Below are positions 13,572 through 40,983 of a DNA stretch of 64,000 bases, piece by piece. Under the pieces are notes generated by a model, which was not told the DNA's origin, did not search any database, and was given only the letters and a program-made list of their open reading frames with translations. Each line of letters opens with the position of its first letter. Within the stretch, counting starts at the first letter, position 1. Made by a program: the position numbers and the translations under genes. This stretch comes from an uncultured Candidatus Saccharibacteria bacterium (GTDB lineage: Bacteria > Patescibacteriota > Minisyncoccia > Phycocordibacterales > JACOZG01): the NCBI GenBank assembly GCA_964648765.1, contig CAZYLF010000002.1:3537-67536 (forward strand). Reading direction: 5' to 3'.

Positions 13572-14834
13572 ATGATTCCGAAAAAAGTACACGTAGTAGG
13601 CGGCGGGACAATTTCCCACGTCAGGTCACATTTGGGACTTTGCGCTCCAGCATACGGTTCGACGGCTCGTTTTATCGCCACTCTGGCTCAACTTGAGTCA
13701 GAGGCAATGCAGATTGAACTCCATCTCACCAGGATGGCTGACCCAACGAGTCATATTGAAACCAGCGAAGACTTAAAAGAATTGGTTTTGGAATTGGTTG
13801 ATGATCCGCGGACCAGAATCATTTTCTGGAATCCGGCCATCGTTGATTTTGATGGCACAATTGGTAAAGTTACGTCTGACAAATATGCCACACGTCTCCA
13901 CACTTCGGATGAAGGCGGCAAACCCCTTAGCTACGAGATGCACCTCACACCTGCCGATAAATTGGTGGGGATGATAAGGAATGGTAGTGAGGGGCGCAGA
14001 CCACGCAAGGATATCTTCCTCGTGAGTTTTAAAACCACAGCTGGAGCCACACCTGAAGAACAGTATCTGGCCGGGCTTCATCTGCTTAAAAGCTCGAGTT
14101 CAAACTTGGTGTTGGCTAATGACGTGGTGACCCGGCACAATATGATTATTGTGCCTGAAGAAGCGGTTTACCATGAGACCAAAAGTCGCACAGATGCCAT
14201 TATGGCCTTGGTGCAGATGACCTATTTGCGCTCTCACCTCACCTTCACCAGAAGCACCGTGGTGGCTGGCGAACCTGTGGCTTGGGATTCTGAATTGGTC
14301 CCGCCGGTACTCCGCAAAGTTGTGGACTTCTGCATTGACCGCGGCGCGTACAAAAAGTTCCGCGGTGTTACAGCCGGGCACTTTGCGGTGAAGATTGATG
14401 ACACCACCTTTCTCACCTCACGTCGCAAAACTGACTTTAATGATATGAAGACAGTGGGCCTCGTGATGGTAAAAACGGATGGGCCGGACTCAATCATCGC
14501 CTACGGCTCCAAGCCGTCGGTGGGTGGGCAATCACAAAGGATTGTTTTCACTGATCACCCTGGCACTGATTGCATTGTGCACTTCCATTGCCCAATTAAA
14601 CCGGGCTCAATGGTACCAACGGTGTCACAGCGCGAATATGAGTGTGGTAGCCACGAGTGCGGTAAAAACACTTCTCGAGGGCTTGCTCAGTTTGGTAATT
14701 TGAAAGCGGTGTATCTGGATCAACATGGTCCGAATATCGTTTTCTCCAAGGATATCAACCCACAAGAAGTGATCGACTTTATCGAGGCCAACTTTGACCT
14801 CGAGAAAAAGACGGGTGGCTACAGCGTCACCTGA
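13572..14834 (+). CDS. two-domain protein: N-terminal Rossmann-like (VHVVGGGTISHV) and C-terminal class II aldolase/adducin-like domain
   Basis: RBS gaaaggagg precedes the start. C-terminal …FLTSRRKTDFNDMKTVGLVMV…GSKPSVGG…IVHFHCP resembles the class II aldolase/adducin N-terminal fold. Confidence 0.65.
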   Translation: MIPKKVHVVGGGTISHVRSHLGLCAPAYGSTARFIATLAQLESEAMQIELHLTRMADPTSHIETSEDLKELVLELVDDPRTRIIFWNPAIVDFDGTIGKVTSDKYATRLHTSDEGGKPLSYEMHLTPADKLVGMIRNGSEGRRPRKDIFLVSFKTTAGATPEEQYLAGLHLLKSSSSNLVLANDVVTRHNMIIVPEEAVYHETKSRTDAIMALVQMTYLRSHLTFTRSTVVAGEPVAWDSELVPPVLRKVVDFCIDRGAYKKFRGVTAGHFAVKIDDTTFLTSRRKTDFNDMKTVGLVMVKTDGPDSIIAYGSKPSVGGQSQRIVFTDHPGTDCIVHFHCPIKPGSMVPTVSQREYECGSHECGKNTSRGLAQFGNLKAVYLDQHGPNIVFSKDINPQEVIDFIEANFDLEKKTGGYSVT

Positions 14835-14902
14835 TCAACAAAGTTCTTTCTTCAAAAAAGCAATCCCGCGTTTGGAGTAATCCAAACGCGGGATTTTATT
14901 TT
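14805..14902. repeat. direct repeat copy 1 (gene 3' end + terminator), partner at 20630-20728
   Basis: …gggtggctacagcgtcacctgatcaacaaagttctttcttcaaaaaagcaatcccgcgtttggagtaatccaaacgcgggattttatttt matches the block at 20643-20728. Confidence 0.8.
14862..14902. terminator. bidirectional rho-independent terminator
   Basis: Perfect 15-bp stem aatcccgcgtttgga / tccaaacgcgggatt with loop gtaa; T-run on the + strand and A-rich on the other side. Confidence 0.8.
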
Positions 14903-14983
14903 GCATATATAAAAAAACCGCACCACCAGCCGAAGCTGTTGGTGCGGTATGACTACTTGTTTCTAAACTACAAATGGTTTGGC

Positions 14984-15292
14984 CTAGTTGCCGCGAACCT
15001 TTGTAAAGATCAAAACCTGGTCTCCTTCGTTCAGGGCGATGTCAAAGCTTGAAACTCTTTGTCCATTGAGCCGAACGTCCGAGGATGCATCAACCTTGCT
15101 CTCATACCCACTTGCCTTGAAAGCATCAACGATAGTGCTGCCCTCGGCAAGCTTGTACGCCTTCACCTGACCACCCGGAAATGCTCCCAACTTCATCTCA
15201 AACTTCTTCGCCGGAGCTTCTTTCTTCGCAACTTTCTTTCCGGTAACGCTACCACCCGCACTCTTCCGATTAGATGTCTTTGCCGTTGTCAT
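14984..15292 (-). CDS. ubiquitin-like beta-grasp protein (ThiS/MoaD-like) with Lys-rich disordered N-terminal extension; C-terminus …KVRGN
   Basis: The C-terminal ~70 aa (KLAEGSTIVDAFKASGY…VRLNGQRV…LNEGDQVLIFTKVRGN) follow the MoaD/ThiS/Ubl pattern. It is the last gene of the E2-JAB-E1 operon. Confidence 0.55.
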   Translation of the reverse strand: MTTAKTSNRKSAGGSVTGKKVAKKEAPAKKFEMKLGAFPGGQVKAYKLAEGSTIVDAFKASGYESKVDASSDVRLNGQRVSSFDIALNEGDQVLIFTKVRGN

Positions 15293-15320
15293 AACTTAAT
15301 CCTTTCCTCTAGAGTGTTCC

Positions 15321-16022
15321 CTACTTATACATTTGACCTACGACCATCGTAGGCTGTAACGAAAAGACCAATTCATTTTCAAGCTCGTCAGTGAGAGGTT
15401 TCCCCTCCTTGAGCTTGCTCTGAATTTGCTGCCACCGAATCAACTGCCAAACCGCCAAACCTGAGACAATTTCGGCAGTAGATCCAACTGTAATCGACGC
15501 TCCACACGCTGACACGGGTGCAACATCGTCACCGTAAAGAGTACTTTCCCACCCTTTGACCTGGGTGGGGGCATTGGGGTTTATGGTATAAACCCGCCCA
15601 CTATTTGCCCCCATTCTGGTCTCAATCATAAGTTTGACCGAGGGTTTCAAACGGATGCCTCTTTCCCAGATTTCCTTTCGAGATGCCATCGTGTCAGTCA
15701 ACAGAAAGACAACATCTCCCAATCTTTGTGAGCCATCTACTCGTTCTGGGTGAACAGTAACCTGAGTACCTGTTTGCTCCAGAATAATCTCCGCCAAGGC
15801 CTCTGTTTTTAACCGGCCAACATGATTGTTGCCAAAAGCTTGGTTAGGAATATTGTGCGCCTCAATCTTATCGGGATCCCAAATATCAATCTTGGATATC
15901 CCGAGTTTTGCCAACCCGATCGCAATTCGCGACCCCGTGGCTCCCACTCCGATCACACTAACTCTTTGCTCTCCAAATTGCTCTGGAGCAAAGACCTCGA
16001 GATGGCGTATGGTATCAAGCAT
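15321..16022 (-). CDS. ThiF/MoeB/HesA-family E1-like adenylyltransferase (short, adenylation domain only)
   Basis: Rossmann motif VIGVGATGSRIAIGLAKLG, DIWDPDKIEAHNIPNQ (the D.D.V..SNL.RQ motif) and a conserved Cys in VSACGAS. Confidence 0.8.
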   Translation of the reverse strand: MLDTIRHLEVFAPEQFGEQRVSVIGVGATGSRIAIGLAKLGISKIDIWDPDKIEAHNIPNQAFGNNHVGRLKTEALAEIILEQTGTQVTVHPERVDGSQRLGDVVFLLTDTMASRKEIWERGIRLKPSVKLMIETRMGANSGRVYTINPNAPTQVKGWESTLYGDDVAPVSACGASITVGSTAEIVSGLAVWQLIRWQQIQSKLKEGKPLTDELENELVFSLQPTMVVGQMYK

Positions 16023-16038
16023 CTTTTTCCTTTCATCA

Positions 16039-16809
16039 TTAATCGTCCGTCTGCTGATTAGGACTCATCCACGAAAAAGGTGTCCAGTATTTTTGCGGCT
16101 GCGGGGCGACAGTGATAAATGAATAAGCCTTCACTTTCTCCCGCATCTCCGCACGTAATTCAAACCACAGAGCACGCAACTCATCCAATGAAGGCAAAGC
16201 TGGGCCCCTTAAACGCCAGGGCACGTCATGAATTGCATATCCTCGTCGCCAGTCAAACAAAGACAGATTAACCTCTCCACGCCGATTAAAAATTCCTCGT
16301 AAGAAGAACTCCGAACCTCGGTCACGAAAGACGTCCATCTGTTCATCATCCTGAGTAGAAGGATAAACCGATCCATTAACATGAGAATGGCCCCAAAACC
16401 TGATATTGTTGAAGGCTTCTTCTCCCTTGGGTTTTCTGAGCAACTCCGAAGCAAAATTAAACAAACTATCAGTGGTGATTTCAGTATGTCCACCACTAAC
16501 CCCCTGGTTGAAAAGATAAACATCATTGACGATAGTTTGTCTTTTCTCCCGAACGGCGGTGCCCAACCAACCTACTTCGTACCCAATACCGCTCACGAAC
16601 GCATGCATCTTAAACATTGCAAGCGGTGTGACTTCCACCAAAGCTGAAATCTTGCGAGGCACCCGTAGTCTCTCAACCACGGTGGAAAATTGCTCAGGCT
16701 CATTAAACGTCACTCCTGTTTCCTCAGGATGTGTCCACCTGATCTGACGCAATTCTCGTTTAGGTTTTAACTTCCCTCCCTTTCCGACCACTCCTCTGTA
16801 ATTCCTCAT
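16039..16809 (-). CDS. JAB/MPN (JAMM) metalloprotease domain protein
   Basis: JAMM motif HSHVNGSVYPSTQD (HxH-x7-S-x2-D) in WGHSHVNGSVYPSTQDDEQM. Confidence 0.7.
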   Translation of the reverse strand: MRNYRGVVGKGGKLKPKRELRQIRWTHPEETGVTFNEPEQFSTVVERLRVPRKISALVEVTPLAMFKMHAFVSGIGYEVGWLGTAVREKRQTIVNDVYLFNQGVSGGHTEITTDSLFNFASELLRKPKGEEAFNNIRFWGHSHVNGSVYPSTQDDEQMDVFRDRGSEFFLRGIFNRRGEVNLSLFDWRRGYAIHDVPWRLRGPALPSLDELRALWFELRAEMREKVKAYSFITVAPQPQKYWTPFSWMSPNQQTDD

Positions 16810-16843
16810 AGCAAACTCTCCCTAGTAAGAGACAAAACAATAT

Positions 16844-18556
16844 CTAAGCGGCTTTTTCAGCAACTCGCAATTTCCCCATTGACTCAAGTATTGATGGATT
16901 CACTTTCTTACCATCAAACTCCTTGAGAAAATTTAGAGTCACAATAACCGCTGACTCAATTTCCAGACTTCCCAACAATTCAGGAACCACCAAACTTAAC
17001 TGACCGATACCTACTGCATCCTTTTCCGTTGCTCCCAATTGGGGAACATGTACCGCGCCAAATCTGTCGTGGTAAATTGGAAACGGATTAATGACCCTTA
17101 CTGCATCATCTCGAGTATTAAACTGGAGATGAAGAGGGCCAACTGAATATACTTGGTCAGTGCTTATGTCGGTGACCTCAAGTTGTGAGAAAACTACATG
17201 TAGGGTAGAACCCAACAAATTAATCTCTCGCACCTCTTTGAGTTTCCATAGCTTCTCCAGCTCATTATGAACTTTACTTGCCACTTCTTGGGGTTTTAAA
17301 ACTCCCAGCGTATTAGCAAGCGCAGCATAGAAAACTGACCGACGATTGGCATCAATTTGGTTTAAAAGCTCAACTACTCTAGCTTTCAAACCATGCTCCC
17401 TCGTTTGACGATTTTGAGAATACAATACCTGAAACGCTCTGAGCGTTTCAGGTGATAGCGGCGCTCTTTCCTTCGGGTACTCCATCCTTGCTACAGCCCT
17501 AGGAAAAATTTGAAGGATTCTCTGATACGCATCATCCTCATTTACAGAATCAATAGCTTTCAGAGCAAAAAGAGTTGCTGCTTCAAACTCAAAATTCTGC
17601 AAAAGTTTAATGATCCAAGCGCCTTCACCCTGGCACCAATGTCCTTTAGATCGATCCACATGGGGATGACCGTACTCAGCTGCATAACGTTCATCACGGT
17701 GGAAAGGCCTACGAGTTAGATTAGAAAATGACGCATCAGCCTTGTCTCCAAAACTTAACGTCACCTTAAACTCACCTAACTCATAGAGTTGTTTACCGTC
17801 TCCACTTAACGCATACATTACATGGGTAAACAATATAAGTTTGTCCCCCTGAACCTCAACTTTTTTTATCTCAGGAATATTAGCCAAGAGTTTGATAGCC
17901 CTGTCTGACTCACTGGTGTTATTGGTTATGTCAGCAAATTGCCGATCCAATTCTCCCCGCTGAGCCATGTGTTGCTCTAACTCTGCGCGATGTGCGTGCA
18001 TGGACATCTTGATTCGCCCCAAAAGATCCCGATCGATTGGCGGAAATTCTCCCCGCTGGCATTGCTCCAAAGTGGGCAAACCAATGCGCAAAAATTTCAC
18101 CGCTTCCAAGAGTATCCCCCTATAGATGGCATTTCTGGATTTGCGATCAGAATAACGATCACTGTTTGCGCGAAACAGAAAATACAAGCTATTGCCGACC
18201 AGTTCGGCCATAACATCTCCTGTTTTCGGGTCCACAATCACCAATCCATCACCAGACGGTTCATACATTCTTTCGCCCGATTCACAAATTGCCATTGGGT
18301 GACCCCAAATTTTCTTTGGGGTTAACCTAACTGAGGCAACTTTTGACGGAGTCGCAAAAATGTTAATGACAAATCTGTTATCACGATTTTGTGGAGGAAT
18401 ATGCTTTTGCCTTTCTGTGTCATGCATACCATCATGAATTTCAATCTCATCCATGTATGCCAGCTTATCGCCCAAGACCTCCCTCGTGATACCCTCAAAA
18501 TCCTGTTGAGTCTCCAAACTTCTTGTCCAATCAGTAGTTTTAACCACCAAAGACAT
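16844..18556 (-). CDS. 570-aa protein with central E2/UBC-like domain (putative catalytic Cys in HPHV…GHWCQG)
   Basis: …YELGEFKVTLSFGDKADASFSNLTRRPFHRDERYAAEYGHPHVDRSKGHWCQGEGAWIIKLLQNF… matches the UBC HPN-x(5-7)-G-x-(I/W)C signature. The flanking N- and C-terminal domains are unrecognised. Confidence 0.55.
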   Translation of the reverse strand: MSLVVKTTDWTRSLETQQDFEGITREVLGDKLAYMDEIEIHDGMHDTERQKHIPPQNRDNRFVINIFATPSKVASVRLTPKKIWGHPMAICESGERMYEPSGDGLVIVDPKTGDVMAELVGNSLYFLFRANSDRYSDRKSRNAIYRGILLEAVKFLRIGLPTLEQCQRGEFPPIDRDLLGRIKMSMHAHRAELEQHMAQRGELDRQFADITNNTSESDRAIKLLANIPEIKKVEVQGDKLILFTHVMYALSGDGKQLYELGEFKVTLSFGDKADASFSNLTRRPFHRDERYAAEYGHPHVDRSKGHWCQGEGAWIIKLLQNFEFEAATLFALKAIDSVNEDDAYQRILQIFPRAVARMEYPKERAPLSPETLRAFQVLYSQNRQTREHGLKARVVELLNQIDANRRSVFYAALANTLGVLKPQEVASKVHNELEKLWKLKEVREINLLGSTLHVVFSQLEVTDISTDQVYSVGPLHLQFNTRDDAVRVINPFPIYHDRFGAVHVPQLGATEKDAVGIGQLSLVVPELLGSLEIESAVIVTLNFLKEFDGKKVNPSILESMGKLRVAEKAA

Positions 18557-18607
18557 GTTTTACCTCCTTTACATAGTTTAGTTTTCAAGGTCCCGTTACC
18601 TGTATAT

Positions 18608-18635
18608 TTACTAGCATATAGAAATAATTTGTCAA
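18608..18635 (-). promoter_or_regulatory. promoter (minus strand) TTGACA-N16-tgcTAGTAA for the E2-JAB-E1-Ubl operon
   Basis: Reverse complement of 18608-18635 reads TTGACAaattatttctatatgcTAGTAA. Confidence 0.5.
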
Positions 18636-18640
18636 TAGCT

Positions 18641-18676
18641 AAAATAAAAAGCCCCCACTTTTAGGACAGTGGGGGC
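18641..18676 (-). terminator. rho-independent terminator (minus strand) after the FAD monooxygenase gene
   Basis: gcccccactgtcctaaaagtgggggc hairpin plus T-run on the minus strand. Confidence 0.7.
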
Positions 18677-18698: not shown

Positions 18699-20231
18699 TT
18701 ACCTAATTCGACGCGTTTTTTTGTACTCTGCAGCTCTCATGATCACTCCAAAAACCAAATCACCCAAAGAGTGGAGCATGCCGGGAATAACAATGGCGTT
18801 GGGATTTTCAGGAGTCTCAACTACACACCCAAATCCAAAGTAACCACGACTCAACCGTTCAGGTTTACGAGGATCAAATTCGTTTGACGCAAATTCGCCA
18901 TCGTAATCAAACAAGGCACATGCCTTTTTTGTGTCGTACGAACAACCCATCATCTCCATGGTTTCTTTGGAATGTTGGTAACCAATCAAGGTCATGATTC
19001 GATCGTACGGGAGCTGATCGAGAAATTTACCCTTTGGACCGAAAATTTGGATCACACCGCCATCAACTTCCCAGTGCTTCACATTGGAGATAATTTTACC
19101 TCCATATAATGCTCGGAAATAGTCATGACGGTATTCTGGCAAATCACCTTGATAATCAACCAAGTTCGGCCGAGATAAATCTCTGAATACCCGATAAACC
19201 CTTTCTCCACTCTCGACATAAGAATTTGGATTGAAAGTCGCCGCCTCGGGGTAATGAGTAAGGATTCGATAATCAACCTCATATCCATTGTCGATAAGTT
19301 TGTGAATCTGGTGGATCATTTCAGCGGTCGAGTTACCAAGACCGATAAGAATGAATCGCTTCCCCTTTGCCTCAGCTGGCCGGAGGAAATACTGCCACCG
19401 TGCACCCGCTTCACTCACCTTTGCAGTAGTAGTCATCCGTAAAGGATCGGAGATCGGTTTGGGTTTACCCATTCCAATCGCATTTATCACAATCGGATAT
19501 GTTGCCGTTTTACCACCCGCAAAACTCAGTAAATGCTTTAGCTTACCCGGCTTAATTCCAGTAACATTCTCAGTCACTGTTTTAAGGGTAGCCAAGTTAT
19601 CCAGAAAAATCCGCACCTCATCCCCATCTCCAGGTGCAGGCTCAAGGACATCCCCGAAAAACTGTAACCGTCGGGGATTATTGCGTGACAATCCATGGAC
19701 ATTATCTTGTGCCCAGATTCCTAATGGCCTACTCTTCTCATAAACCGTGATCTTTTCAAAGCCAACTCTTTGAAGTGCGGCTGAAACAAGGATCCCGGCT
19801 GCCCCATAACCAATTACGGCGACAGGAACACTTCTGAGTGATTGGGGTATACGGACATCGGTAAAGTAAACGCCTGACGCCCCCTCACCAATAAAATTGT
19901 TACCCTCAGCAATCCCGCTACTCGCAAGGGCTTTGCCAATACGACCATTTTCTTCATGTGATCCGTTATACGGAGAAGTCTCGGCGGGTTGTATGTGGGG
20001 GAGAGCCAAAGCATAGTTGTCGATTAACCCGGTATCAGCGTTTGGTTGACGCAATACCAGATTCAACAGTGCGTTGCCAAAAAATCCCTGCTCAGCCAAT
20101 TTGTTAATAGCTGACAAATCAAAACCCTTGTCTTCAATAAACCTCCGAAGTAAACCCAAATCAAGCTGATCTGGCCTTCTAGCACCGAACATCTTTAATA
20201 GTTCAGCTGCTGTAGCTTTGGGGGTAGACAT
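18699..20231 (-). CDS. FAD-dependent monooxygenase (flavin-containing/N-hydroxylating monooxygenase-like) with ~130-aa N-terminal extension
   Basis: Two Rossmann dinucleotide motifs, VAVIGYGAAGILVSAAL and FILIGLGNSTAEM. Confidence 0.7.
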   Translation of the reverse strand: MSTPKATAAELLKMFGARRPDQLDLGLLRRFIEDKGFDLSAINKLAEQGFFGNALLNLVLRQPNADTGLIDNYALALPHIQPAETSPYNGSHEENGRIGKALASSGIAEGNNFIGEGASGVYFTDVRIPQSLRSVPVAVIGYGAAGILVSAALQRVGFEKITVYEKSRPLGIWAQDNVHGLSRNNPRRLQFFGDVLEPAPGDGDEVRIFLDNLATLKTVTENVTGIKPGKLKHLLSFAGGKTATYPIVINAIGMGKPKPISDPLRMTTTAKVSEAGARWQYFLRPAEAKGKRFILIGLGNSTAEMIHQIHKLIDNGYEVDYRILTHYPEAATFNPNSYVESGERVYRVFRDLSRPNLVDYQGDLPEYRHDYFRALYGGKIISNVKHWEVDGGVIQIFGPKGKFLDQLPYDRIMTLIGYQHSKETMEMMGCSYDTKKACALFDYDGEFASNEFDPRKPERLSRGYFGFGCVVETPENPNAIVIPGMLHSLGDLVFGVIMRAAEYKKTRRIR

Positions 20232-21111: not shown

Positions 21112-21693
21112 GGACAGGTTCTTGGCTTACAGATGGTATACTCAACTGAGTTATGCCACGAAAAGAAACAAGAACCTATGCTGATCGAGCAGCCTATATG
21201 GTAAGGGCCGTTTCTTTAAGAAGAATTAAGTTAAGGAAAATGGCTCGAGAATACAAAGGTGGTAAATGTGAAATTTGCGGTTACTCTAGATGTGAGCGAG
21301 CGCTAAGTTTCCATCATCGAGATCCTAAAAAGAAATCCTTCGGGATATCAGACAGAGGTCTAACGTATTCTTGGCAGAGGATAAAAAACGAAATTGATAA
21401 GTGTGTCCTCCTCTGCGCTAATTGTCATATGGAATTGCACGACGGTTTTACGCAGCTTCCCGCTGTAAAGCGGGTTGAAAAATGAGGTGAATTCGGTGAA
21501 GTCCCATGTGGATAATACCGAGCCGAGCCCGCCAACATCCGAAAGGTTGTGGCGGGAAGGTGTAGAGACTATCTCGCAAGAGAGTACTTCTCGCTAAATA
21601 AAATTAACGAGACGGAAGCGCCTCACATCCCACTCACTGAAAAGTGAAGGATGATGATCTAGTCCATCCCTTTAAGCAATTAGAGGATAAATG
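21112..21693 (+). other. group I self-splicing intron (putative) carrying an HNH homing endonuclease ORF
   Basis: It lies between the tRNA halves. The 3'-terminal G, the R/S-like elements (ggtgtagagactatc … gatgatctagtcc) and an internal HNH ORF support the call. The exact P1 and boundaries are unverified. Confidence 0.55.
21153..21485 (+). CDS. HNH homing endonuclease (intron-encoded)
   Basis: CEICG…HHRDPKKK…CANCH zinc-finger/HNH motif; 110 aa. Confidence 0.7.
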   Translation: MPRKETRTYADRAAYMVRAVSLRRIKLRKMAREYKGGKCEICGYSRCERALSFHHRDPKKKSFGISDRGLTYSWQRIKNEIDKCVLLCANCHMELHDGFTQLPAVKRVEK

Positions 21694-21719
21694 TAAGCGA
21701 TTGGTCGTAGGTTCGAATC

Positions 21720-23390
21720 CTACCGCCGGAGCCTGACTGACAAAAGTGGCACATGATGCCACTTTTGTTGTATTTGGCCTGGCTTTTTAGAGGTTCGAGC
21801 GTGCTCTATTTCCTGCATAATAGCTTCTCGTGCTTTTATGAGGCTCAAAAAGAAAGAACTGTAGGAAAGCTGGATCTTTTTGTCGGAAATGGTGAGGTTC
21901 GAGCCAAGGCATGCGAGTATCGCTCTTTTGGTCTTTTCATCTCCATTTGCGTACCAAAGATGGGCGTAGCACGCAAAGTCAAAGGTTTGCTCTGATAGTT
22001 CTGCCCATTGTTCAACTGCCTTATTCTTAATCTTCAACTCGTCTTCAAGAAGGCCCTTCTTTCTGAGTAGGTCTGATTTTAAGGACTGATATTCCTGTTC
22101 GCCAATGATGGTTCGAGCCTTGTTGGATGGTGCGGTGAAGTTTAAGGTTAAAGACTGCAGCTGCTGCGTTACTTCTTCACACTCCTTGTGTTTGGTCCTT
22201 ATTGCAATTGAATCACTCTCGGCCTCAGTCTTGCGGACCTCATGAACATGGCGGACCGCCCAGTCACGATACTCTTCTGAAATTCTTATATCTTTAAGGA
22301 TCGCTCCAATCTGTAGATGTAGCAGTTTTACTTCTACATGCTTTTCAGTACAACCGGCATCATATCTCTTTTTGGTGCAGTTATAGTAGACATAATGATG
22401 GACGTTGCCGTTCTTGCATCGCTTTACTTTTGCTTGAGCTGTAATACTACAACCACAGGTGGCGCATTTCATAAGACCAGTAAAAGCAAACATTCGCTCC
22501 TCATGTCGTGGGCGTGGTTGATTGCTTCGGCCCATAATTTTTTGGACCCTATCAAATTCCTCTTTGGTAACCATTGGCTCATGCGCTCCTTTATTCCAAT
22601 TACCACTGTGTAGCGGAAACTCAAACCAACCGTAATAAAATGGATTCCCTAGGACTGCATAAATTGCTGATCGAGAAAGATGTTCGCCGCCAATGTTTCT
22701 ACGTGGGACCGTCCGGAGATTCAATTGCTTTCTTGAAATATTCCAAATCTGGGCCATTGAATAGTTGCCGGTAAGAGCAAGGTCAAAAAGTCTTCGGACC
22801 AAGGGAAACCTTTCAGGATCTCTTTCCAAAGTCTTATAACCCTTTTGCTTGTTTGGAGTATTGAGGTATCCGATTGGTGCGCCACTTGGCATCCAGCCAT
22901 CTCTCACTTTCTTTTGCAGACCTCGCTTCACATTCACTGATAGGTCTCGAATAAACTGGTTGGCCATTCCAAGTTCCACCTGCATCATGAGGACGTTGTC
23001 TGTCGGATAATAGGTTCGGCCGAAGGTGACGATCTGGGATATCGCACTCTGCTGCAACATCCAGCTTATCTGGCCACCATCGACAGGATTACGGGCTAGG
23101 CGGTCCAGTTTCCAGCACAGGATGCCATTGGCTTCGCCTTTATAGATTCTTTCAAGCATTGAGTTGAATACTTTCCTGCCTGGCTTCTTGGCTGATTGTG
23201 ATTCTTCAAGGATATCCAGGATTTGTAGACCTTGATCCTTTGCAATCTTCATAAGCTCGTCTTTCTGAGCATCTATGGACGCCGCTTGACGGTCTTCTGC
23301 CTCGCTGGATTTACGTGCGTAGAGGAAATATTTAATTGGTTGATTTGTCTGGTTCATTGTTTGTTTGTGTGTCAGATATGTGGGTCTCAT
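21720..23390 (-). CDS. large serine recombinase (resolvase/invertase N-domain + recombinase domain + zinc ribbon)
   Basis: N-terminal YARKSSEAEDRQ…SIDAQ catalytic Ser region, central recombinase domain and C-terminal CATCGC…C cluster. The stop overlaps the tRNA 3' exon by ~12 nt. Confidence 0.85.
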   Translation of the reverse strand: MRPTYLTHKQTMNQTNQPIKYFLYARKSSEAEDRQAASIDAQKDELMKIAKDQGLQILDILEESQSAKKPGRKVFNSMLERIYKGEANGILCWKLDRLARNPVDGGQISWMLQQSAISQIVTFGRTYYPTDNVLMMQVELGMANQFIRDLSVNVKRGLQKKVRDGWMPSGAPIGYLNTPNKQKGYKTLERDPERFPLVRRLFDLALTGNYSMAQIWNISRKQLNLRTVPRRNIGGEHLSRSAIYAVLGNPFYYGWFEFPLHSGNWNKGAHEPMVTKEEFDRVQKIMGRSNQPRPRHEERMFAFTGLMKCATCGCSITAQAKVKRCKNGNVHHYVYYNCTKKRYDAGCTEKHVEVKLLHLQIGAILKDIRISEEYRDWAVRHVHEVRKTEAESDSIAIRTKHKECEEVTQQLQSLTLNFTAPSNKARTIIGEQEYQSLKSDLLRKKGLLEDELKIKNKAVEQWAELSEQTFDFACYAHLWYANGDEKTKRAILACLGSNLTISDKKIQLSYSSFFLSLIKAREAIMQEIEHARTSKKPGQIQQKWHHVPLLSVRLRR

Positions 23391-24231
23391 TTACTGGCTC
23401 TGCCCATTTTTCGCCGTTTTTAAAGGGTGGTTCCGTAGTATCTGATTGGATACTACTGACTTCCCGTAAATTTCCCGTTATATCGGGAAAATTATCTCCG
23501 TTTTCTGTGGGTCTCACTACCTCACTTAAGGGTATGTTTCCTTCATAGGCTGTCTGGACGACATCATGCCCAGAAGGGTCTTGAATAGCAACTTCTAGTG
23601 GTAGCTGCCACTTATGCATTTTTCTTTTAAGAACATCTCCAATGCTAGTTAAAGAATTCGGGGATTTATTATTTTGGTTAGTTAGAGTATCTACGTTAAT
23701 ACTACGGTTCCTGCGTTTTCGGATACTACGGAGATGTATATCTGGATACTGCGCAACTGAATCTTTAAGTTTGAGACGCCCTTTAACATGGGCAATGCTT
23801 TTCCAAAAATCGACCGACTTAAAGTAGTACAGGTTCAGAGTTTTGAATCCACTCTTTGTCTGAACCACACCAAGGATGCTGCACTCAACAAGAAGCCGGA
23901 CCGCATTGGCAACATAGTTTCTATTCTTCTCCCCAGTTAAGTCTTGAATCGTGGTTAAGCTTGGCCAGGCGACTTGTGTCTGTGTATTTCCATGTTTCAA
24001 GATTGCGCAGTAAACAAGCGTGCAGAGCTTTGGCAACTTTTCCATATAGCCATGCTCTACAAATTCATTCTCCACGAAAAATCGAGTAGGCTTTCTCTTA
24101 CCGCGCAATAAGGACCGGTCAATCTGATTCTTCAGTTCCTCGATCTTCGCCTTGTGGTAGGCATGAGCTATCTCCACTTTCTTTTTCTTCGGGTCCAACC
24201 ACTCGAGGAAATACTTCTCGTTGTTGTTCAT
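23332..24231 (-). CDS. putative replication initiator / winged-helix DNA-binding protein
   Basis: wHTH-like segment LCTLVYCAILKHGNTQTQVAWPSLTTIQDLTGEKNRNYVANAVRLL; located next to the iteron-like array. The start may be the internal Met (24045). Confidence 0.45.
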   Translation of the reverse strand: MNNNEKYFLEWLDPKKKKVEIAHAYHKAKIEELKNQIDRSLLRGKRKPTRFFVENEFVEHGYMEKLPKLCTLVYCAILKHGNTQTQVAWPSLTTIQDLTGEKNRNYVANAVRLLVECSILGVVQTKSGFKTLNLYYFKSVDFWKSIAHVKGRLKLKDSVAQYPDIHLRSIRKRRNRSINVDTLTNQNNKSPNSLTSIGDVLKRKMHKWQLPLEVAIQDPSGHDVVQTAYEGNIPLSEVVRPTENGDNFPDITGNLREVSSIQSDTTEPPFKNGEKWAEPVNETHISDTQTNNEPDKSTN

Positions 24232-24388
24232 ATTCTGTAAGCCACACCTTTTTCACAGGCCGATAGACAAGATCAAAGACCGTCAGGAGTTTGGTAGCTT
24301 CTTCAACAAGAATTTCATCTGATGGAACCTCGCCATGTTCCTGGCGATAGATCTCTCGATATTCATCTAGTGCTTGTTTACTTAGCAT
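24119..24388 (-). CDS. small protein homologous to the 33511..33735 ORF (function unknown); C-terminal part overlaps next gene
   Basis: N-terminal 45 aa (DEYREIYRQEHGEVPSDEILVEEATKLLTVFDLVYRPVKK) align with ESFQVLYKTHFNKDISRAEAVEKGTKLLTLMKAVYKPMTKE. Confidence 0.45.
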   Translation of the reverse strand: MLSKQALDEYREIYRQEHGEVPSDEILVEEATKLLTVFDLVYRPVKKVWLTEYEQQREVFPRVVGPEEKESGDSSCLPQGEDRGTEESD

Positions 24389-24499
24389 GATGGTGTAGTG
24401 TTTGGTTAATAATTTCGACCTTTAGTCTCTTCCAGAAATAGAAAGAGCTGAGTCCCAGTTGCAAGTGACTCAGCTCTTTCCATGCAACTGGATGTTATG

Positions 24500-24860
24500 T
24501 ATCGTAGATCCTATTTCGTGCAAAATTGCGTGCATTACTTTGGGACCATCCGATTTGTCTATTCTGAGGCCCTATATTTTCCTAATTGCAGGAATTACTT
24601 CGGACCAAAGAACTATCTAATCCTAGTGCTTAAAAAAAGCAAAACATGGTGTATTACTTTTTATGGCTAGGATTATGGATTTATCCTAAGGTGTATAAAG
24701 TTCCTAACTGTAGGAATTACTCTTACCCCCCGAGGACTGTCTTAATCCTATTGTCTAAAAAGTGAAAAATGCGTTGCATTACTTTCATCTCCTCGGACAG
24801 TCATATCCTAAGAGCAAATGTAGTGCATTTCGGTGTGCATTACTTTTCCTTTAGGACCAG
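24500..24860. repeat. iteron-like array: 6 degenerate tandem repeats of ~61 bp each containing ATCCTA and TGC(G)TGCATTACTTT motifs
   Basis: kGCATTACTTy occurs at 24531, 24591, 24651, 24714, 24776 and 24836. ATCCTA occurs at ~24507, 24619, 24682, 24744 and 24805. The array lies in the intergenic region upstream of the rep-like/recombinase genes. Confidence 0.7.
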
Positions 24861-24975
24861 GTAAGTATGAGGTCCGAAGAAGTGCAAATTAGTGGGTATT
24901 GGCCGAGACAACGTAAAAAGCCCTGAATAGGCTTGGAAAAGCGTACACAGGGCTGTTTAGGGTCAAATTCGGTGT

Positions 24976-27900
24976 CTACAATATGTTCTCTCGCAATAAA
25001 TAAGCTATTACCGAAGCCTTTTCCAAGAGGAAATCCAAAATGATGAGAATCTGATTTTTTAACTGCGGATTAGTCTTGATCTTTTGCCGATTTTTAAGAA
25101 TGTAACTCCTCACAAGATTCTCCAGATAATAAACAGTGTTTACTTCTAGTTCCTTACGAGAAAGATCTGGATTCTTCTGTAGCAAATCACTAATCCAAGC
25201 AATACCCTCAGGAACAAAATTACTACCTATATCATTCAGAAGTTTTGTCAAAGCATACAAGACAGGGGTATTACCTCCCATATCTTCAGATACTTTCTTA
25301 AAGAAAGTCTTTTCTCTGTCTTTCAGAGAGCGCCATTCTTTCGCCCCTTTCTTCCATTGCAATGCTAGGAGGTATTTATGAACAACACTTTCAGCGTATC
25401 TAAGGTGATTTTCATCTGAGCATAGTTCCACAATCTTCGGATAGAAAACCTTCCAAACAGTCCAAAATTCTTCGTATTGATTTATAGAATCTTCCGCAAT
25501 AACAAACGCTTCTAGTACATCAGCCACAGCTTTCCTTCGCCTGAAATCACCAATGAGTTCCGTAAATGGCTTCACATACGTTTCAATTTCTTCTTTTGGA
25601 GAATAGAGGACAAAGTAAGCAAACTTATCTAAAAATCTATGTTCAAGCATATAGTCCAGACGCTCTTCCTTGTCCTCATTCTTAAATGCTTCTATGAGCA
25701 CAGGGCAAATTTCTCGTAAAAACTTCTTATGATTCTCGTCACTAGTTTTTAGCGGTACCAGCAGAAAAGCAGTTACGAGTATGCCGGGATCTATCTCTGC
25801 AACATTCTGTAGATCTGTATAAGAGAGTTGATTTGATAAGGCTTTATTGATCTGGGCTTTGCACTCTTTTTTAAAACGCTTTATGACAGAGATTGTAGAG
25901 AAGTCATATTTTTGTTTCTTTCGACTCTCTTCTCGAATAGACTCGCTTATTTCATCAAACTTAGGTTTAAGAAATAAGTACCCATGGAATATAGCTTTTG
26001 CATCCTCGGGACTTTCTGACCACAGATGTTGCAGAACTGCCGCGACCGCATAATCAGAGACTCGTTGGCTCATACCAATCGGATAGGAGTCGAAAAGAAC
26101 GAGAAGAAGTATCACTTTGATTTTTTCAGCATCCTTGGGAAACTTTTTGATCAATAGAGGAAGGACGTTAACTGATGCTTCTAATCCGTCGCCAACCTGA
26201 TATCGAAAACCTGCCTTCAAAGGCATAGATGCATAATCGAGTACTACTTTTTTACAAAACTCTGTATCCTTAGGAGACAGTTTGTCTGAGTAGTCTCGCA
26301 AAAGTACGGCACAGACATATGATGGAACTGACCGGTAGAATAATCTGAATTGACTCTCTTCGAGTTTATCTTTATCTAGCTGTTCCAGGATTGCTTTCGT
26401 TTCAGAAAGCGCGAGCACAGGATCATTTTCATATTGTGGGTAATTTTTTACTTCTTCCTTTCTTTCAAACTTATGACTCGACCATAATTGCAAAGGTGTA
26501 TATTTCAATGCTTCGGAACTTTTTGCCTGCGCTTCTTCACTGTGTTGTCTTAACTCTGGATCAATCTCAGGGTTGAAACTAATAAGAACTTGATCGTCTT
26601 TTTTCTCTGTAGTTATCTTCATTTTTCGACGATCCATTCTTGCCAAACAAAGTCTCCAGGTTTTATCACCATCAGTCTCTTTTGATTTGTTAGGTAGTTT
26701 TGCATAGTATTCATCAAGTATTTTCCATACCTCTTCCTGTCTAGTTTTAGACACTTCTTCCGCTTCGCCCTCATTCGCAAATAACTGATAGTTAAGTGCC
26801 TGATTTTCAAGTGAGTGATTACGATGCTTATCTTCACAAGTCTGCAGCCTCTCGTTCTTGAATAAGCCCATTGGATCATGGGCCATCGAGTAAGTGAACT
26901 TCGCACTACTCATATCGAGGTACATTCTTGAAGAATCAAAGAAAAAGAAATCCTTAGTTCTGAAAAGAATTTTTGCAATATTGAATAGCTTCGACGGTTC
27001 GGCAAGAACAGCGCTGACTACTACTGCAGTAATCGAGACGGATCGAGAATTTTTGATGAGATAAAGGCACCACTTCTCTACAACTTCAGGATCCCAGGTT
27101 TTTGCTATACCGAGCAACCAATGCTCCAGAGCCATATGAATAGATTCAAGTAATGGTGGAGCAACCTGCGTTCCCCGATATAAATTCCAAATTCTGTGAC
27201 AGGCATATTGTTTGATAGTTTGACCCGAAGCATCTACTACGACATCTATTTCTTCAGCTTCGTACTGCGCGAATTCTGATTTGGCAAAATACCCGATCGA
27301 CTTATTAGTAAATGCTAAAATAAAGTTGACCGTTTCCTGAGGGGCGACTTGCAACATCGTTCCTATTGGTGTCTGAAAAGCACTAGCTGGGTAATACTCA
27401 AGATGGCCCTCCGTGAGATCAAAGTATTGCTCTATGCCATTCCTGTAATCAGAATATGAATGCCTATCTTCACGAGGTTTATAAAACCAAAATAGATTTG
27501 CAAGTTTTATGATTTCTTTCGGAAGATGACGTGCAACTTCGGTGCTATTGATAATTGAAGAAAGCATCACTTTTACCAATTCGTAATATCGAGTTCGATG
27601 GGATGTATCCTGCGCGGCAATGACTCCATCTACAATTTCAGTCAACTCTTCTTTTATTTCCCCTGAGCCACTAAGAATAGTTCTGATGAGTTGCTCTTTG
27701 GAGCTATCACGAGAACTGAAGTAAAAATCATTCTTGGCTGTAAGGGTGTTGTAATAAAACAATGCAATCTGACTTGCTTCCTTAGTAGTTTCTCCTTGCT
27801 TATTACTTCGGTTCCAATCATCCAGTACTGGGAGGATGACATGCATATACATAAGTTGAAGCCTGTCCTTATGTTTGTTGACGAAAGCAATGGCAGAAGA

Positions 27901-29814
27901 CCACCCACTACCTTTAGGAGTCGTAAATATAGTTTCTAGTGTAAGTGCATTTGCTCGAGTTAAACCCAGACGATTCAAGAAATTGTCATCTACAGTCTTG
28001 CAGGCAATTCTCAGCAAGAAGAGAATTCTGTGTAGCAGTCTTTGTTCGATCTTGTAATTAACATTAACCACCCTAATCACTTTGGAAGAGCTTTCGACAG
28101 AAACGACTCGTTCAGGTTCCTTAAGTAATTCTTCTTCAAAAAGATCAAAGAATACTTTTGAATAATCTGAGAGGAGTACTGAGACTAAAACCTCATCTTT
28201 CCAATAATTCTCAACGGAACCATCTTGCACCGTAAATGCAATCAACTTCTTTGCTTTTTCATCACTTGCAAAAAGTTTGTCGGATAGCCAATTTCTAAAG
28301 GCACGTCGAATTGGAAGCGAACTACCTATTTCAGTGTAAAAATTATCGAAGCTGGTAGCAGTGCTAAAGGCCCTCTCGATAATCATATCTAAAGCCCACT
28401 CTTCATATACATCGTGTGTTATGAAGTATCCGCCAGCGTTTGAATCAAATTTGATAATCTCGCTCGCTTCTAGTTTCTGAAGCGCTTCATGATCAGATTC
28501 TCCAGTCCTAACGAAGAATCCTCCCTCATTTGCACGTTGCTTAGCGATCTTCAAAAAAGACTCTTCTCTTCGTCTGTGTAAATTATTTGATTGAAAACCT
28601 GAATTCTGGATCTGCTTCTTCCAAATAATTTCGCGAAAATCAGTATAGCTAATATCTGCCTTCGTCTCAGTATAATCCTGTAAATACTCACTCAGATAAA
28701 GTGGCGTTGAAAGAAGGCTTGCAAGTCTGTCATTTTTAGGAAGCTTGAATTTATGTGTCCTTGCGATTAATTCAATTTCTTCACTGGAAAGATGTGGAAT
28801 ATTCAGGGATGCAAAATTCGCTCCGTAGAATTCTTTTAGTTGGAAACGGAGATCATCAAGATAGTTATGTCGCACTGTAAAAATAACTTTCCAACCATTT
28901 GTGACTAACTCAGACAGAAACATTCTGAACACATCTTGGTCTTCGATTTCTGAAAGTCTTTCAGCCGAGTCAAAGACTACATACTTCTCATTGATATCTT
29001 TATGCTCAGCAATAAATTCTGCTGCAGTGATTTCTCCATAATCCTTGAAAAGTTGGTTTATATGGGAAGCACTTTTAAATTGTGTAACCTTAAAGACGAA
29101 AAAGGGTGTGGAATCCTTTACTGTTTCGTAAAGATCTTTTATTACCGCAGTTTTACCTACCCCTGCACCACCACTTAAAACCACAAGCGGAAAAGTTTGA
29201 GCGGTATCTTTAACACCACCCACAACAGAAGAACGGTCTAGTTTGATTGCACTTTTCCCAAAAGAGATCTCTGAACGGATAGGCTGAAGTACTGAATCAG
29301 TATATTTCTGGAGTTCAATAATGGAGTCGATGATGCCCTTCTTAAGACTAAAGAAATGTTGCGCGATACTAAAGTTCTCTTCGCAAACAAATGGCGATTC
29401 AAAGTAGCTTCCTGTCCGCCATTCGATCTCGACACCTTTTGACTTAGCGTGAGCTTCTATGTCCTTTTTGTATTGAGGATCTGTTTTCTTTTTGTCCTGT
29501 CCAAATTCTTGATTCGTATAGAAAATAATTTTATTTAGCTTCGGATGTCTCTCTTTGCCTTTATCGATGGATTCTTTAAAGTCGGCAGTATGTTGAGAGA
29601 GCGCTGTCGTATAAAATTTCGACTGCCAACCTACAACTAAGCCATTCTGTTCAACAGGATTGGTTTCGATACCAGCATGATTCTTGAACCTAAAAACACC
29701 AATATTTTTATTAAACTCCTTGCAAAATAAAAGATAACAAAGTCGTTCAAAAGCCCCTTGCTTATTACTACTAAATTTCGCACCGAAGTTGTCCCAATTC
29801 ACTTCCTGAATCAT
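24976..29814 (-). CDS. 1612-aa STAND-type P-loop NTPase (Avs-like architecture): putative N-terminal PD-(D/E)xK-like nuclease, central NTPase, long C-terminal helical repeat region
   Basis: Walker A VVLSGGAGVGKTAV, Walker B KYVVFDSAE, sensor VIFTVRHNY (hhhTxR) and then ~1250 aa of helical repeats. The first ~130 aa (…GIETNP…VVGWQSKF…) are a possible E…QxK nuclease-like core, which is speculative. Confidence 0.75.
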   Translation of the reverse strand: MIQEVNWDNFGAKFSSNKQGAFERLCYLLFCKEFNKNIGVFRFKNHAGIETNPVEQNGLVVGWQSKFYTTALSQHTADFKESIDKGKERHPKLNKIIFYTNQEFGQDKKKTDPQYKKDIEAHAKSKGVEIEWRTGSYFESPFVCEENFSIAQHFFSLKKGIIDSIIELQKYTDSVLQPIRSEISFGKSAIKLDRSSVVGGVKDTAQTFPLVVLSGGAGVGKTAVIKDLYETVKDSTPFFVFKVTQFKSASHINQLFKDYGEITAAEFIAEHKDINEKYVVFDSAERLSEIEDQDVFRMFLSELVTNGWKVIFTVRHNYLDDLRFQLKEFYGANFASLNIPHLSSEEIELIARTHKFKLPKNDRLASLLSTPLYLSEYLQDYTETKADISYTDFREIIWKKQIQNSGFQSNNLHRRREESFLKIAKQRANEGGFFVRTGESDHEALQKLEASEIIKFDSNAGGYFITHDVYEEWALDMIIERAFSTATSFDNFYTEIGSSLPIRRAFRNWLSDKLFASDEKAKKLIAFTVQDGSVENYWKDEVLVSVLLSDYSKVFFDLFEEELLKEPERVVSVESSSKVIRVVNVNYKIEQRLLHRILFLLRIACKTVDDNFLNRLGLTRANALTLETIFTTPKGSGWSSAIAFVNKHKDRLQLMYMHVILPVLDDWNRSNKQGETTKEASQIALFYYNTLTAKNDFYFSSRDSSKEQLIRTILSGSGEIKEELTEIVDGVIAAQDTSHRTRYYELVKVMLSSIINSTEVARHLPKEIIKLANLFWFYKPREDRHSYSDYRNGIEQYFDLTEGHLEYYPASAFQTPIGTMLQVAPQETVNFILAFTNKSIGYFAKSEFAQYEAEEIDVVVDASGQTIKQYACHRIWNLYRGTQVAPPLLESIHMALEHWLLGIAKTWDPEVVEKWCLYLIKNSRSVSITAVVVSAVLAEPSKLFNIAKILFRTKDFFFFDSSRMYLDMSSAKFTYSMAHDPMGLFKNERLQTCEDKHRNHSLENQALNYQLFANEGEAEEVSKTRQEEVWKILDEYYAKLPNKSKETDGDKTWRLCLARMDRRKMKITTEKKDDQVLISFNPEIDPELRQHSEEAQAKSSEALKYTPLQLWSSHKFERKEEVKNYPQYENDPVLALSETKAILEQLDKDKLEESQFRLFYRSVPSYVCAVLLRDYSDKLSPKDTEFCKKVVLDYASMPLKAGFRYQVGDGLEASVNVLPLLIKKFPKDAEKIKVILLLVLFDSYPIGMSQRVSDYAVAAVLQHLWSESPEDAKAIFHGYLFLKPKFDEISESIREESRKKQKYDFSTISVIKRFKKECKAQINKALSNQLSYTDLQNVAEIDPGILVTAFLLVPLKTSDENHKKFLREICPVLIEAFKNEDKEERLDYMLEHRFLDKFAYFVLYSPKEEIETYVKPFTELIGDFRRRKAVADVLEAFVIAEDSINQYEEFWTVWKVFYPKIVELCSDENHLRYAESVVHKYLLALQWKKGAKEWRSLKDREKTFFKKVSEDMGGNTPVLYALTKLLNDIGSNFVPEGIAWISDLLQKNPDLSRKELEVNTVYYLENLVRSYILKNRQKIKTNPQLKNQILIILDFLLEKASVIAYLLRENIL

Positions 29815-29819
29815 CGTAT

Positions 29820-30983: not shown

Positions 30984-30985
30984 AA

Positions 30986-32107: not shown

Positions 32108-32111
32108 AAAT

Positions 32112-40697: not shown

Positions 40698-40983
40698 TCC
40701 TTACCCCTGCCCCAGAGATCACATCAAAGGGGCTTTTTTCTTTAGTTGACGCAGATTAAGAATTTGCTAAGATGTTGAGGTAACGTTCTTTGACAACAGA
40801 ATATATATCAAGAGTGAGCTGAGGGAATGGCCCGATGAAGCTCCGACAACCTGCCCCATAATCTGTGGGCAAGGTGCCAAATCCAACCCCTGCGGGAAGA
40901 TATCTATCTGTTTAAAGTAATTCAATAGAAACAACACCGCACTCGCGGTGTTGTTTCGTGTTTATCTTTAATAAGGAGAGAAA

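Follow-up and report, generated by a model that had tools for sequence, protein, structure and literature searches.

The stretch of DNA analysed here, a window of 64,000 nt from contig CAZYLF010000002.1 of an uncultured Candidatus Saccharibacteria bacterium, carries on its minus strand, at positions 14984-18556, four co-directional open reading frames (ORFs) that together resemble a compact cassette for the conjugation of a ubiquitin-like protein (Ubl). In the direction of transcription, these ORFs encode a 570-aa multidomain protein similar to ubiquitin-conjugating enzymes (E2-like; 16844-18556), a 256-aa JAB/JAMM metallopeptidase (16039-16809), a minimal 233-aa homologue of ubiquitin-activating enzymes (E1) with a single ThiF-type domain (15321-16022), and a 102-aa Ubl (14984-15292). 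Gaps of 28, 16 and 34 nt, in the order of the coordinates, separate the ORFs, exactly as described in an initial annotation made from the sequence alone, which had noted four tightly spaced genes with gaps of 16-34 nt, an E1 and an E2 that are not fused, and an E2 lying within a much larger protein.

Several putative control signals frame the operon. The region upstream of the 570-aa gene (18563-18676, minus strand) holds a strong Shine-Dalgarno sequence (AAGGAGG, 18563-18570) 5′ of the ATG, a perfect TTGACA hexamer (18630-18635) and a terminator-like hairpin (18651-18676) that ends the preceding gene and parts it from the operon. Of the promoter previously proposed at 18608-18635, only the -35 hexamer is convincing: the -10 hexamer is weak, and a promoter scan makes no sigma-70 call at the TTGACA. 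At the other end of the operon, two intrinsic-terminator-like hairpins lie 3′ of the Ubl gene (14862-14948, minus strand). The terminator that had been placed at 14862-14902 was recovered by a terminator scan as a hairpin with a bidirectional stem of 15 bp (14862-14895) and a following run of T residues, and a second hairpin, read from the sequence directly 3′ of the Ubl stop codon (~14911-14948), shows a 14-bp stem with one mismatch, followed by seven T residues.

The E2-like protein, the E1 and the JAMM peptidase

The 570-aa protein has no match in Pfam, NCBIfam, PADLOC, PHROGs or the sequences of the PDB. Alignment and structure modelling divide it into an N-terminal alpha/beta domain (residues 1-156; 18089-18556), a helical hairpin, a central and presumably active UBC-like (E2) domain (residues 212-352; 17501-17923), a long helix, and a second, Cys-less UBC-like domain at the C-terminus, similar to ubiquitin E2 variants (UEV-like; residues ~428-565; 16862-17275). 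The catalytic motif of the central domain, as placed by alignment to UbcH7, is G296-H-P-H-V-D-R-S-K-G-H-W-C308-Q-G (17627-17671). Six close homologues of the protein, all from metagenome-assembled genomes (MAGs) of Parcubacteria/Paceibacterota, have in common an invariant G-H-P-H-V-D-R...W-C-x-G. A profile search against 1.84 billion cluster representatives extended this group to a superfamily of 1,599 proteins at E ≤ 1e-3 (637 at E ≤ 1e-10) with the motif N-L-T-R...[HA]-P-H-[VI]-x3-5-G-x-x-C-L-G-N; distant members sit in the same type of operon, and ten of them, when scanned, matched no Pfam family.

Three independent lines of evidence support a UBC-like central domain with Cys308 at the catalytic position of E2s. 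The structure prediction suggested in the initial annotation as a check of the UBC fold was made with AlphaFold from a 45-sequence alignment of residues 212-352, and gave a confident model (pLDDT, the predicted local distance difference test, 92.2; pTM, the predicted template modelling score, 0.86). In a comparison of the central-domain profile with the PDB, the only recurrent match, a weak one (E ~0.6), was UbcH7, with hPHVd.eGeaCL aligned on HPNIDEKGQVC86L. Finally, HHalign of the domain with seven canonical E2s aligned 108 columns (E = 9.9e-5, probability 58%) and set its Cys on Cys85 of UbcH5. The UBC signature that had been read from the sequence in the middle of the 570-aa protein is borne out.

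As for the C-terminal domain, the whole-protein model repeats in it the strand/helix pattern of the central domain, and the central-domain hidden Markov model (HMM) matches the C-terminal domains of orthologues with independent E-values of 2e-5 to 3e-12. Pro or Gly replaces the catalytic Cys and Gln replaces the His (HVPQL...GIG in the window protein), which is why this domain is regarded as an inactive, UEV-like copy. The Cys-less paralogue is fused in the window protein but encoded by a separate gene in two of the loci described below (L006 and L007). The rest of the protein is less legible. Its N-terminal domain carries an invariant PSGxG, and profile positions 4-155 are matched in distant members of the superfamily; fold searches with this domain (residues 1-156) were uninformative. 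The whole-protein AlphaFold2 model, in which two long helical hairpins follow the N-terminal domain, is of limited use (pLDDT 73, pTM 0.39), and Foldseek found nothing significant for it in the PDB, the best match being the RWD domain of KNL1 (E = 0.04), followed by weak glutamine-amidotransferase-like matches.

The 233-aa protein matches the Pfam ThiF family (PF00899; E = 3.6e-19), with the domain spanning residues 15-198. It shows a GxGxxG motif, the D49-P-D51-K-I-E54-A-H-N57 box, D110, R115 and Cys173, its sole Cys. In an alignment of 65-66 orthologues, GxGxxG, DxD, N57, Q61, K72, D110, R115, R136 and Cys173 are invariant, so that the earlier description of a ThiF-type E1 with a DxDxxExxN motif and a conserved Cys was accurate. 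In NCBIfam the best models are those of ThiF, yet they reach 56 bits against a cutoff of 159, and all ThiF/MoeB models score far below their cutoffs. The Cap2 'E1-E2' models of PADLOC match only the Rossmann half of the protein (residues ~15-96). Among solved structures, the nearest relatives of the family profile are MccB (the best, E = 6e-9), Uba5, PaaA, ThiF and BubCD (E = 1.6e-6), all of these matches being confined to the same Rossmann half; that with MccB aligns positions 15-95 of the query with residues 112-194. These features support the assignment of the protein, from its sequence, as a ThiF-type adenylating enzyme that is minimal and unfused and has a single invariant Cys.

Although the JAB protein is only weakly matched by the Prok-JAB family of Pfam (E = 0.056), it contains the motif E78...H141-S-H143-x7-S151-x2-D154. 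The five residues E78, H141, H143, S151 and D154 are invariant in an alignment of seven orthologues and in 65/65 sequences of a wider survey, in agreement with the HxH-x7-S-x2-D motif noted before, and the seven matches of the family profile to solved structures are all to Rpn11 (E = 0.05), with the JAMM motifs in register. A complete JAMM site is therefore supported by the alignments.

A recurrent cassette with a Gly-Asn-ended Ubl

With the conserved E1 as probe, 76 loci were retrieved from GTDB species representatives, together with 80 IMG/VR contigs, and scanning with custom HMMs left 64 non-redundant loci in which an E2-like gene accompanies a strong E1. The genomic loci belong mostly to Patescibacteria, including Saccharibacteria, and to Melainabacteria/Obscuribacterales. 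A JAB gene is present in 64/64 loci, always on the same strand as the E2-like and E1 genes; the order E2-like, JAB, E1 is kept in 60 of the 64, and a Ubl was detected in 57. At least one E2-like copy with the PH...C residues occurs in every locus (63/63), and many loci have a second E2-like paralogue without His or Cys. With 64 non-redundant loci showing this cassette, the arrangement lies far beyond chance. Three other Paceibacterota contigs bear the same cassette with an adjoining gene for a flavoprotein-like protein of ~512 aa, and the outer flanks of these copies differ and contain housekeeping genes.

The survey also uncovered a sister group of E1s (~30% identity), in gut MAGs of Clostridia/Bacteroidota (L064-L083) and in IMG/VR contigs (L109-L164), in every case accompanied by a JAB-like gene; the custom HMMs detected neither the E2-like protein nor a Gly-Asn-ended Ubl beside it, and this group may represent a related system with different partners. 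In a Cytophagia MAG (L054:13565-16353), a second, divergent pair of JAB (712 aa) and E1 genes occurs ~5 kb downstream of a complete cassette.

The Ubl of the window consists of a Lys-rich N-terminal extension followed by a ThiS/MoaD/SAMP-like beta-grasp domain that ends in ...FTKVRGN-stop. Its likeness to MoaD and ThiS, recognised in the initial annotation, is borne out by weak matches to ThiS (E = 0.018) and MoaD (E = 0.011) in Pfam and NCBIfam, and by a family profile of 18 sequences, whose best solved matches are SAMP2, at the top, ThiS and MoaD. The profile matches behind the beta-grasp assignment are weak but consistent, and the C-terminus is Gly-Asn (GN), not Gly. The Lys-rich tail reported earlier exists as well, but as an N-terminal extension of ~30 residues that the window protein shares with one relative (L002), and that two others (L001 and L003) lack.

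This Gly-Asn pair ends all 57 of the distinct, well-aligned Ubl domains (57/57); in the window and at many other loci it is followed by a stop codon, and elsewhere by a short cap, by a further Ubl repeat or by a fused protein. Caps extend 1-3 residues past GN (GNN, GNK, GNEEV...; for example ...RGNN in L043), and in the tri-Ubl of Melainabacteria the repeats are joined as '...RPVRGN|VDL...'. Processing of the precursor at GN is thus required in the capped, tandem and fused relatives, where residues, repeats or whole domains continue beyond it. In a few distant phage Ubls, these two residues are GG or GA instead. In the alignments with Pfam ThiS, NCBIfam MoaD, SAMP2, ThiS and MoaD, the family Gly pairs with the penultimate Gly and the Asn takes the position of the terminal Gly; the Asn is for this reason probably the terminal residue of the tag. 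A mature tag ending in Asn (Asn102 in the window) is therefore the most likely form judging from the alignments.

Ubl precursors of eukaryote-like architecture were observed at several loci (L021:2311-3219, L015:2320-3207, L050:5953-6984, L051:9100-9936 and L006:10135-10677). They include tandem di- and tri-Ubl genes in which GN closes each repeat, like polyubiquitin, and, in Saccharibacteria, a Ubl-GN fused ahead of a second beta-grasp-like domain and a coiled-coil protein, an arrangement reminiscent of ubiquitin fusion genes.

Proposed function and relation to known systems

Taken together, the four genes probably constitute a self-contained machine that conjugates a Ubl to other proteins. 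The folds, motifs, invariance and co-inheritance behind this reading are computational observations, whereas the pathway proposed here follows the known mechanism of E1, E2 and JAMM enzymes. It would start with the trimming of Ubl precursors by the JAMM peptidase at the Gly-Asn junction in the capped, tandem and fused relatives, a step that is probably needless for the window Ubl because GN is already its end. The E1 would bind ATP and adenylate the C-terminus of the Ubl, likely Asn102 according to its position in the alignments. A thioester of the Ubl would be formed on Cys173 of the E1, on Cys308 of the E2-like protein, or on both in turn, as the conservation and fold of these sites suggest. 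The 570-aa protein would finally move the Ubl to target lysines with no separate E3, its N-terminal and Cys-less UEV-like domains serving to bind substrate or acceptor Ubl, in the way of Mms2 for Ubc13, and the JAMM peptidase may also undo the modification. Candidate targets in the window clade are the 510-aa flavoprotein encoded next to the cassette and the Lys-rich tail of the Ubl itself.

Several points weigh against this reading, starting with the thioesters, the targets and the JAB cleavage site, which we infer. The predicted central domain has ~8 strands, as opposed to the 4 of canonical E2s, and given such a sheet the domain could formally be a non-catalytic, RWD-like scaffold whose Cys is a coincidence. 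Cleavage between Gly and Asn, which would expose the Gly, agrees with the data nearly as well as a tag ending in Asn, and we know of no precedent for a C-terminal Asn among Ubls activated by E1s. The link to proteostasis discussed below is borrowed from another clade, as the window has no nearby Clp gene. Finally, the cassette lies close to an island of defence genes, which would fit a role in defence.

The cassette has three features of the generic prokaryotic E1/E2/JAB/Ubl operons (class 6 of Iyer, Burroughs and Aravind), namely an intact ThiF/MoeB-type E1, a UBC-fold Cys protein and a JAMM motif, and differs from each of the better known systems. The Bil systems (BilABCD, types I and II) have separate genes for a Ubl, a standalone E2 with a catalytic Cys, a JAB/JAMM peptidase and an E1, without any E3, the E2 being presumed to choose the targets. 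The cassette resembles them in its four separate genes and lack of an E3, but its E1 is a 233-aa single ThiF domain that does not have the defining architecture of the Bil E1; its UBC-like unit, unlike the small standalone BilB, is part of a four-module protein; its Ubl has one beta-grasp and a GN end; and no sequence model joins the two systems. In comparison with Cap2/Cap3 of type II CBASS, its E1 and E2 are unfused and a dedicated beta-grasp Ubl is present, with neither a CD-NTase among the scanned neighbours nor an effector. The Bub systems (6E/DUF6527), which use Tyr/Ser oxyesters and no catalytic cysteines, and which always include the DUF6527 serine protease BubE, are likewise bacterial Ubl/E1/E2 operons, with or without a JAB, outside CBASS and Bil, and BubCD is among the solved relatives of the E1 profile; in the cassette, however, Cys173 of the E1 and Cys308 of the E2-like protein are invariant, and no scanned neighbour matches DUF6527 (PF20137). 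The ThiF cassettes of the 6A-MBL and PRTRC types are set apart by the NCBIfam scores of the E1, which fall below the curated cutoffs (48.6 against 320 bits for Cap2_3 NF058523, and 37.6 against 144.75 for TIGR03736). The suggestion that the operon could be an undescribed variant is therefore upheld, as the features that define Bil, Bub and Cap2/3 are missing from it.

Other resemblances reach beyond these operons. With the archaeal SAMP/UbaA/JAMM1 system and the ThiS/MoaD sulfur carriers, the cassette shares a small ThiS/MoaD-like beta-grasp protein, a minimal single-domain E1 and a JAMM peptidase; the SAMP, ThiS and MoaD systems, however, work without an E2, and their GG-ended proteins also serve as sulfur carriers, whereas the cassette has an obligatory UBC-like Cys protein and a GN end. 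The pairing of an active E2 with a Cys-less variant, either fused or adjacent, recalls Ubc13-Mms2/Uev1a, and the head-to-tail repeats, cap residues or N-terminal fusions of the Ubl recall polyubiquitin genes. The [HA]-P-H-[VI]-x-G-x-x-C-L of the cassette mirrors the HPN[IV]xxxGxICL of eukaryotic E2s, although no sequence homology to the latter was detected past the motif region, and the sheet of 8 strands, the minimal E1 and the Asn-ended tag are all unlike the eukaryotic arrangement. As with MccB and PaaA, the substrate of the E1 has a C-terminal Asn, but this E1 has no peptide clamp and its substrate is a folded protein of 70-100 aa instead of a short peptide.

Literature searches, incomplete in their coverage, returned no paper describing the cassette family, and an earlier description elsewhere is possible. 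In any case, the cassette can be regarded as a further, apparently undescribed, family of bacterial Ubl conjugation. The three characterised operon families of this kind (type II CBASS, Bil and Bub) all stem from cultivated lineages and are linked to defence against phages, probably so for Bub, whereas the present family is large, has no model for its E2-like protein in Pfam, NCBIfam, PADLOC or PHROGs, and is concentrated in Patescibacteria (candidate phyla radiation), Melainabacteria and phages. Eukaryote-like traits, namely the HPx...C motif, the pairing of an E2 with a UEV and the polyubiquitin-like or fusion precursors, are found in it together with a minimal E1 and a Gly-Asn end that had not been reported before. 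If active, the family would extend what is known of the chemistry of Ubl systems in prokaryotes and of their biological roles, and would add a data point on the origin of E2/UEV modules and of polyubiquitin gene structures. The Gly-Asn end, the Cys-less UBC-like domain, the 510-aa neighbour, the size of the family, the Clp gene and the phage copies did not figure in the initial annotation.

That annotation had likened the operon to antiphage systems. As a dedicated defence of the Bil type, the cassette would respond to infection by conjugating its Ubl to structural or replication proteins of the phage and so block assembly, with the JAB protein restraining the system or maturing the Ubl. The immune function of the characterised operons with E1, E2, JAB and Ubl speaks for this view, as do the sporadic distribution of the family, its variable flanking genes, and the recombinase-associated island of defence and mobile genes that begins just upstream, ~1.5-5 kb from the window cassette (21153-33014). 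In order, the island holds an HNH endonuclease (21153-21485, plus strand) and, on the minus strand, a large serine recombinase (21720-23390), an HTH_36 protein (23332-24231), a full-length Avs4 STAND NTPase (24976-29814; PADLOC, 1964 bits), a type II restriction enzyme (29820-30983) and methyltransferase (30986-32206), and a Fic/SoFic-like PDC-S04 protein (32112-33014). However, phages themselves carry the cassette: on IMG/VR phage contigs it stands beside replication genes (DnaB, DNA polymerase, primase and single-stranded DNA-binding protein), and it is also found on a 206-kb phage-like contig (L007/L008/L085). Besides, the three other Paceibacterota copies stand amid housekeeping genes, the melainabacterial copies share their operon with a ClpC-like ATPase, PADLOC has no model for the E2-like protein or the Ubl, and no regulator of the CapW or CapH-CapP type was seen. 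The housekeeping flanks, the phage-borne copies and the ClpC-like partner make a dedicated antiphage function rather unlikely, and as a general role the antiphage framing is not supported; an antiphage role is unproven.

Two further explanations would turn the E1 to a different chemistry. Following the model of MccB and PaaA, it would adenylate the C-terminal Asn, which would cyclise to a succinimide and then be nucleotidylated or opened by a nucleophile, so that the product would be a modified Ubl acting as toxin or signal, or an Asn side-chain linkage, the E2-like Cys catching an intermediate or having some other role. A C-terminal Asn is the hallmark of the MccA and PaaP precursors of the microcin C and pantocin pathways, and in the present family it is invariant and occupies the position of the activated residue; the closest solved relative of the E1 profile is also MccB, with PaaA in the same list. 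Nevertheless, those matches are restricted to the generic Rossmann half and lie within ~5 bits of Uba5 and ThiF, the protein starts at the Rossmann fold, without the N-terminal peptide-clamp domain of MccB, and distant relatives carry GG or GA in place of GN. In addition, MccB chemistry offers no role for a UBC-like Cys or a JAMM isopeptidase, both of which are strictly co-inherited in the cassette, and neither transporter nor immunity genes were found among the scanned neighbours, all of which renders this route improbable. Even less credit is due to a sulfur-carrier (thiocarboxylate) pathway of the ThiS/MoaD/CysO/QbsE type, in which the E1 would adenylate the carrier, the JAB protein would unmask its C-terminus, sulfur would pass to a small molecule and the flavoprotein would be a tailoring enzyme. 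Carriers processed by JAB proteins do exist (CysO with Mec+, and QbsE with QbsD), ThiS and MoaD are the nearest families of the Ubl, the best NCBIfam models of the E1 are those of ThiF, and the neighbours specific to the clade include a flavin-monooxygenase-like gene and one for a DUF6008 membrane protein. Against this, the ThiF/MoeB scores are far under their cutoffs, the carrier would end in GN instead of GG beside a universally co-inherited UBC-like Cys protein, the flavoprotein is missing from most of the family and present elsewhere without the cassette, and no rhodanese domain, sulfurtransferase, ThiG, MoaE or CysM was found among the scanned neighbours of the window cassette. The operon had already been set apart from sulfur-carrier pathways on account of its E2, a distinction that these observations sustain.

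Conjugation of the Ubl to proteins remains the preferred reading, and a general role in protein tagging and proteostasis, co-opted by phages, is favoured over a dedicated antiphage effector system. In 23 melainabacterial loci, a gene for a ClpC/ClpB-type protein with double AAA+ modules begins 0-16 nt after the E1 stop codon, which hints that an unfoldase may read the tag. In a bolder version, which is tentative and on balance rather unlikely, the family would be a degradation-tag system: the Ubl, activated at its Asn, possibly through a succinimide as in MccB, would be built by the E2/UEV protein onto targets or into chains on the Lys-rich tails, and read by a ClpC-type unfoldase, while in the window clade, which lacks Clp, the tag would regulate the flavoprotein or other targets. 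If this were true, such a tag would amount to a second invention of the ubiquitin-proteasome logic, independent of Pup.

Neighbouring genes and other features

The ClpC/ClpB-type protein found in Melainabacteria/Obscuribacterales (L014-L049, 23 loci; for example L032:4225-6678, plus strand) comprises Clp_N, two AAA+ modules and a ClpB_D2-small domain. The 206-kb contig, on the other hand, also encodes Thg1, an Apyc1-like anti-Pycsar protein of the metallo-beta-lactamase fold, RlaP and ThyX, and from these genes at least one carrier of the cassette appears to be a jumbo phage equipped for counter-defence.

Upstream of the window cassette lies the gene for the FAD/NAD(P)-binding, flavin-monooxygenase-like protein of 510 aa (18699-20231, minus strand), which was recognised from its dinucleotide-binding motif only. 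A flavoprotein-like gene adjoins the cassette in 7/7 loci of the Paceibacterota clade and is confined to that clade. The protein was considered as a core component and rejected, as it occurs beside the cassette in one clade (7 loci), its family is also found without the cassette, and a terminator-like hairpin stands between the two; it is possibly a partner or a target. In two of the related loci (L001:7352-7924 and L003:5535-6131), a His-rich DUF6008 membrane protein is encoded beside the flavoprotein-like gene, and no equivalent was recognised in the window.

On the opposite side, a convergent gene for a 420-aa protein (13572-14834, plus strand) uses the same bidirectional terminator as the operon. 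Its C-terminal half matches class II aldolase/adducin proteins (E = 1.3e-6) and its N-terminal half gives only a faint phosphopantothenate-cysteine-ligase-like match; the gene is not conserved beside the cassette elsewhere. Finally, the only Rfam matches in the window are a tRNA-Ala (1449-1524) and an S-adenosylmethionine (SAM, S-box) riboswitch at 40802-40906 of the plus strand, with a score of 66.6 bits (gathering score, 44.4).

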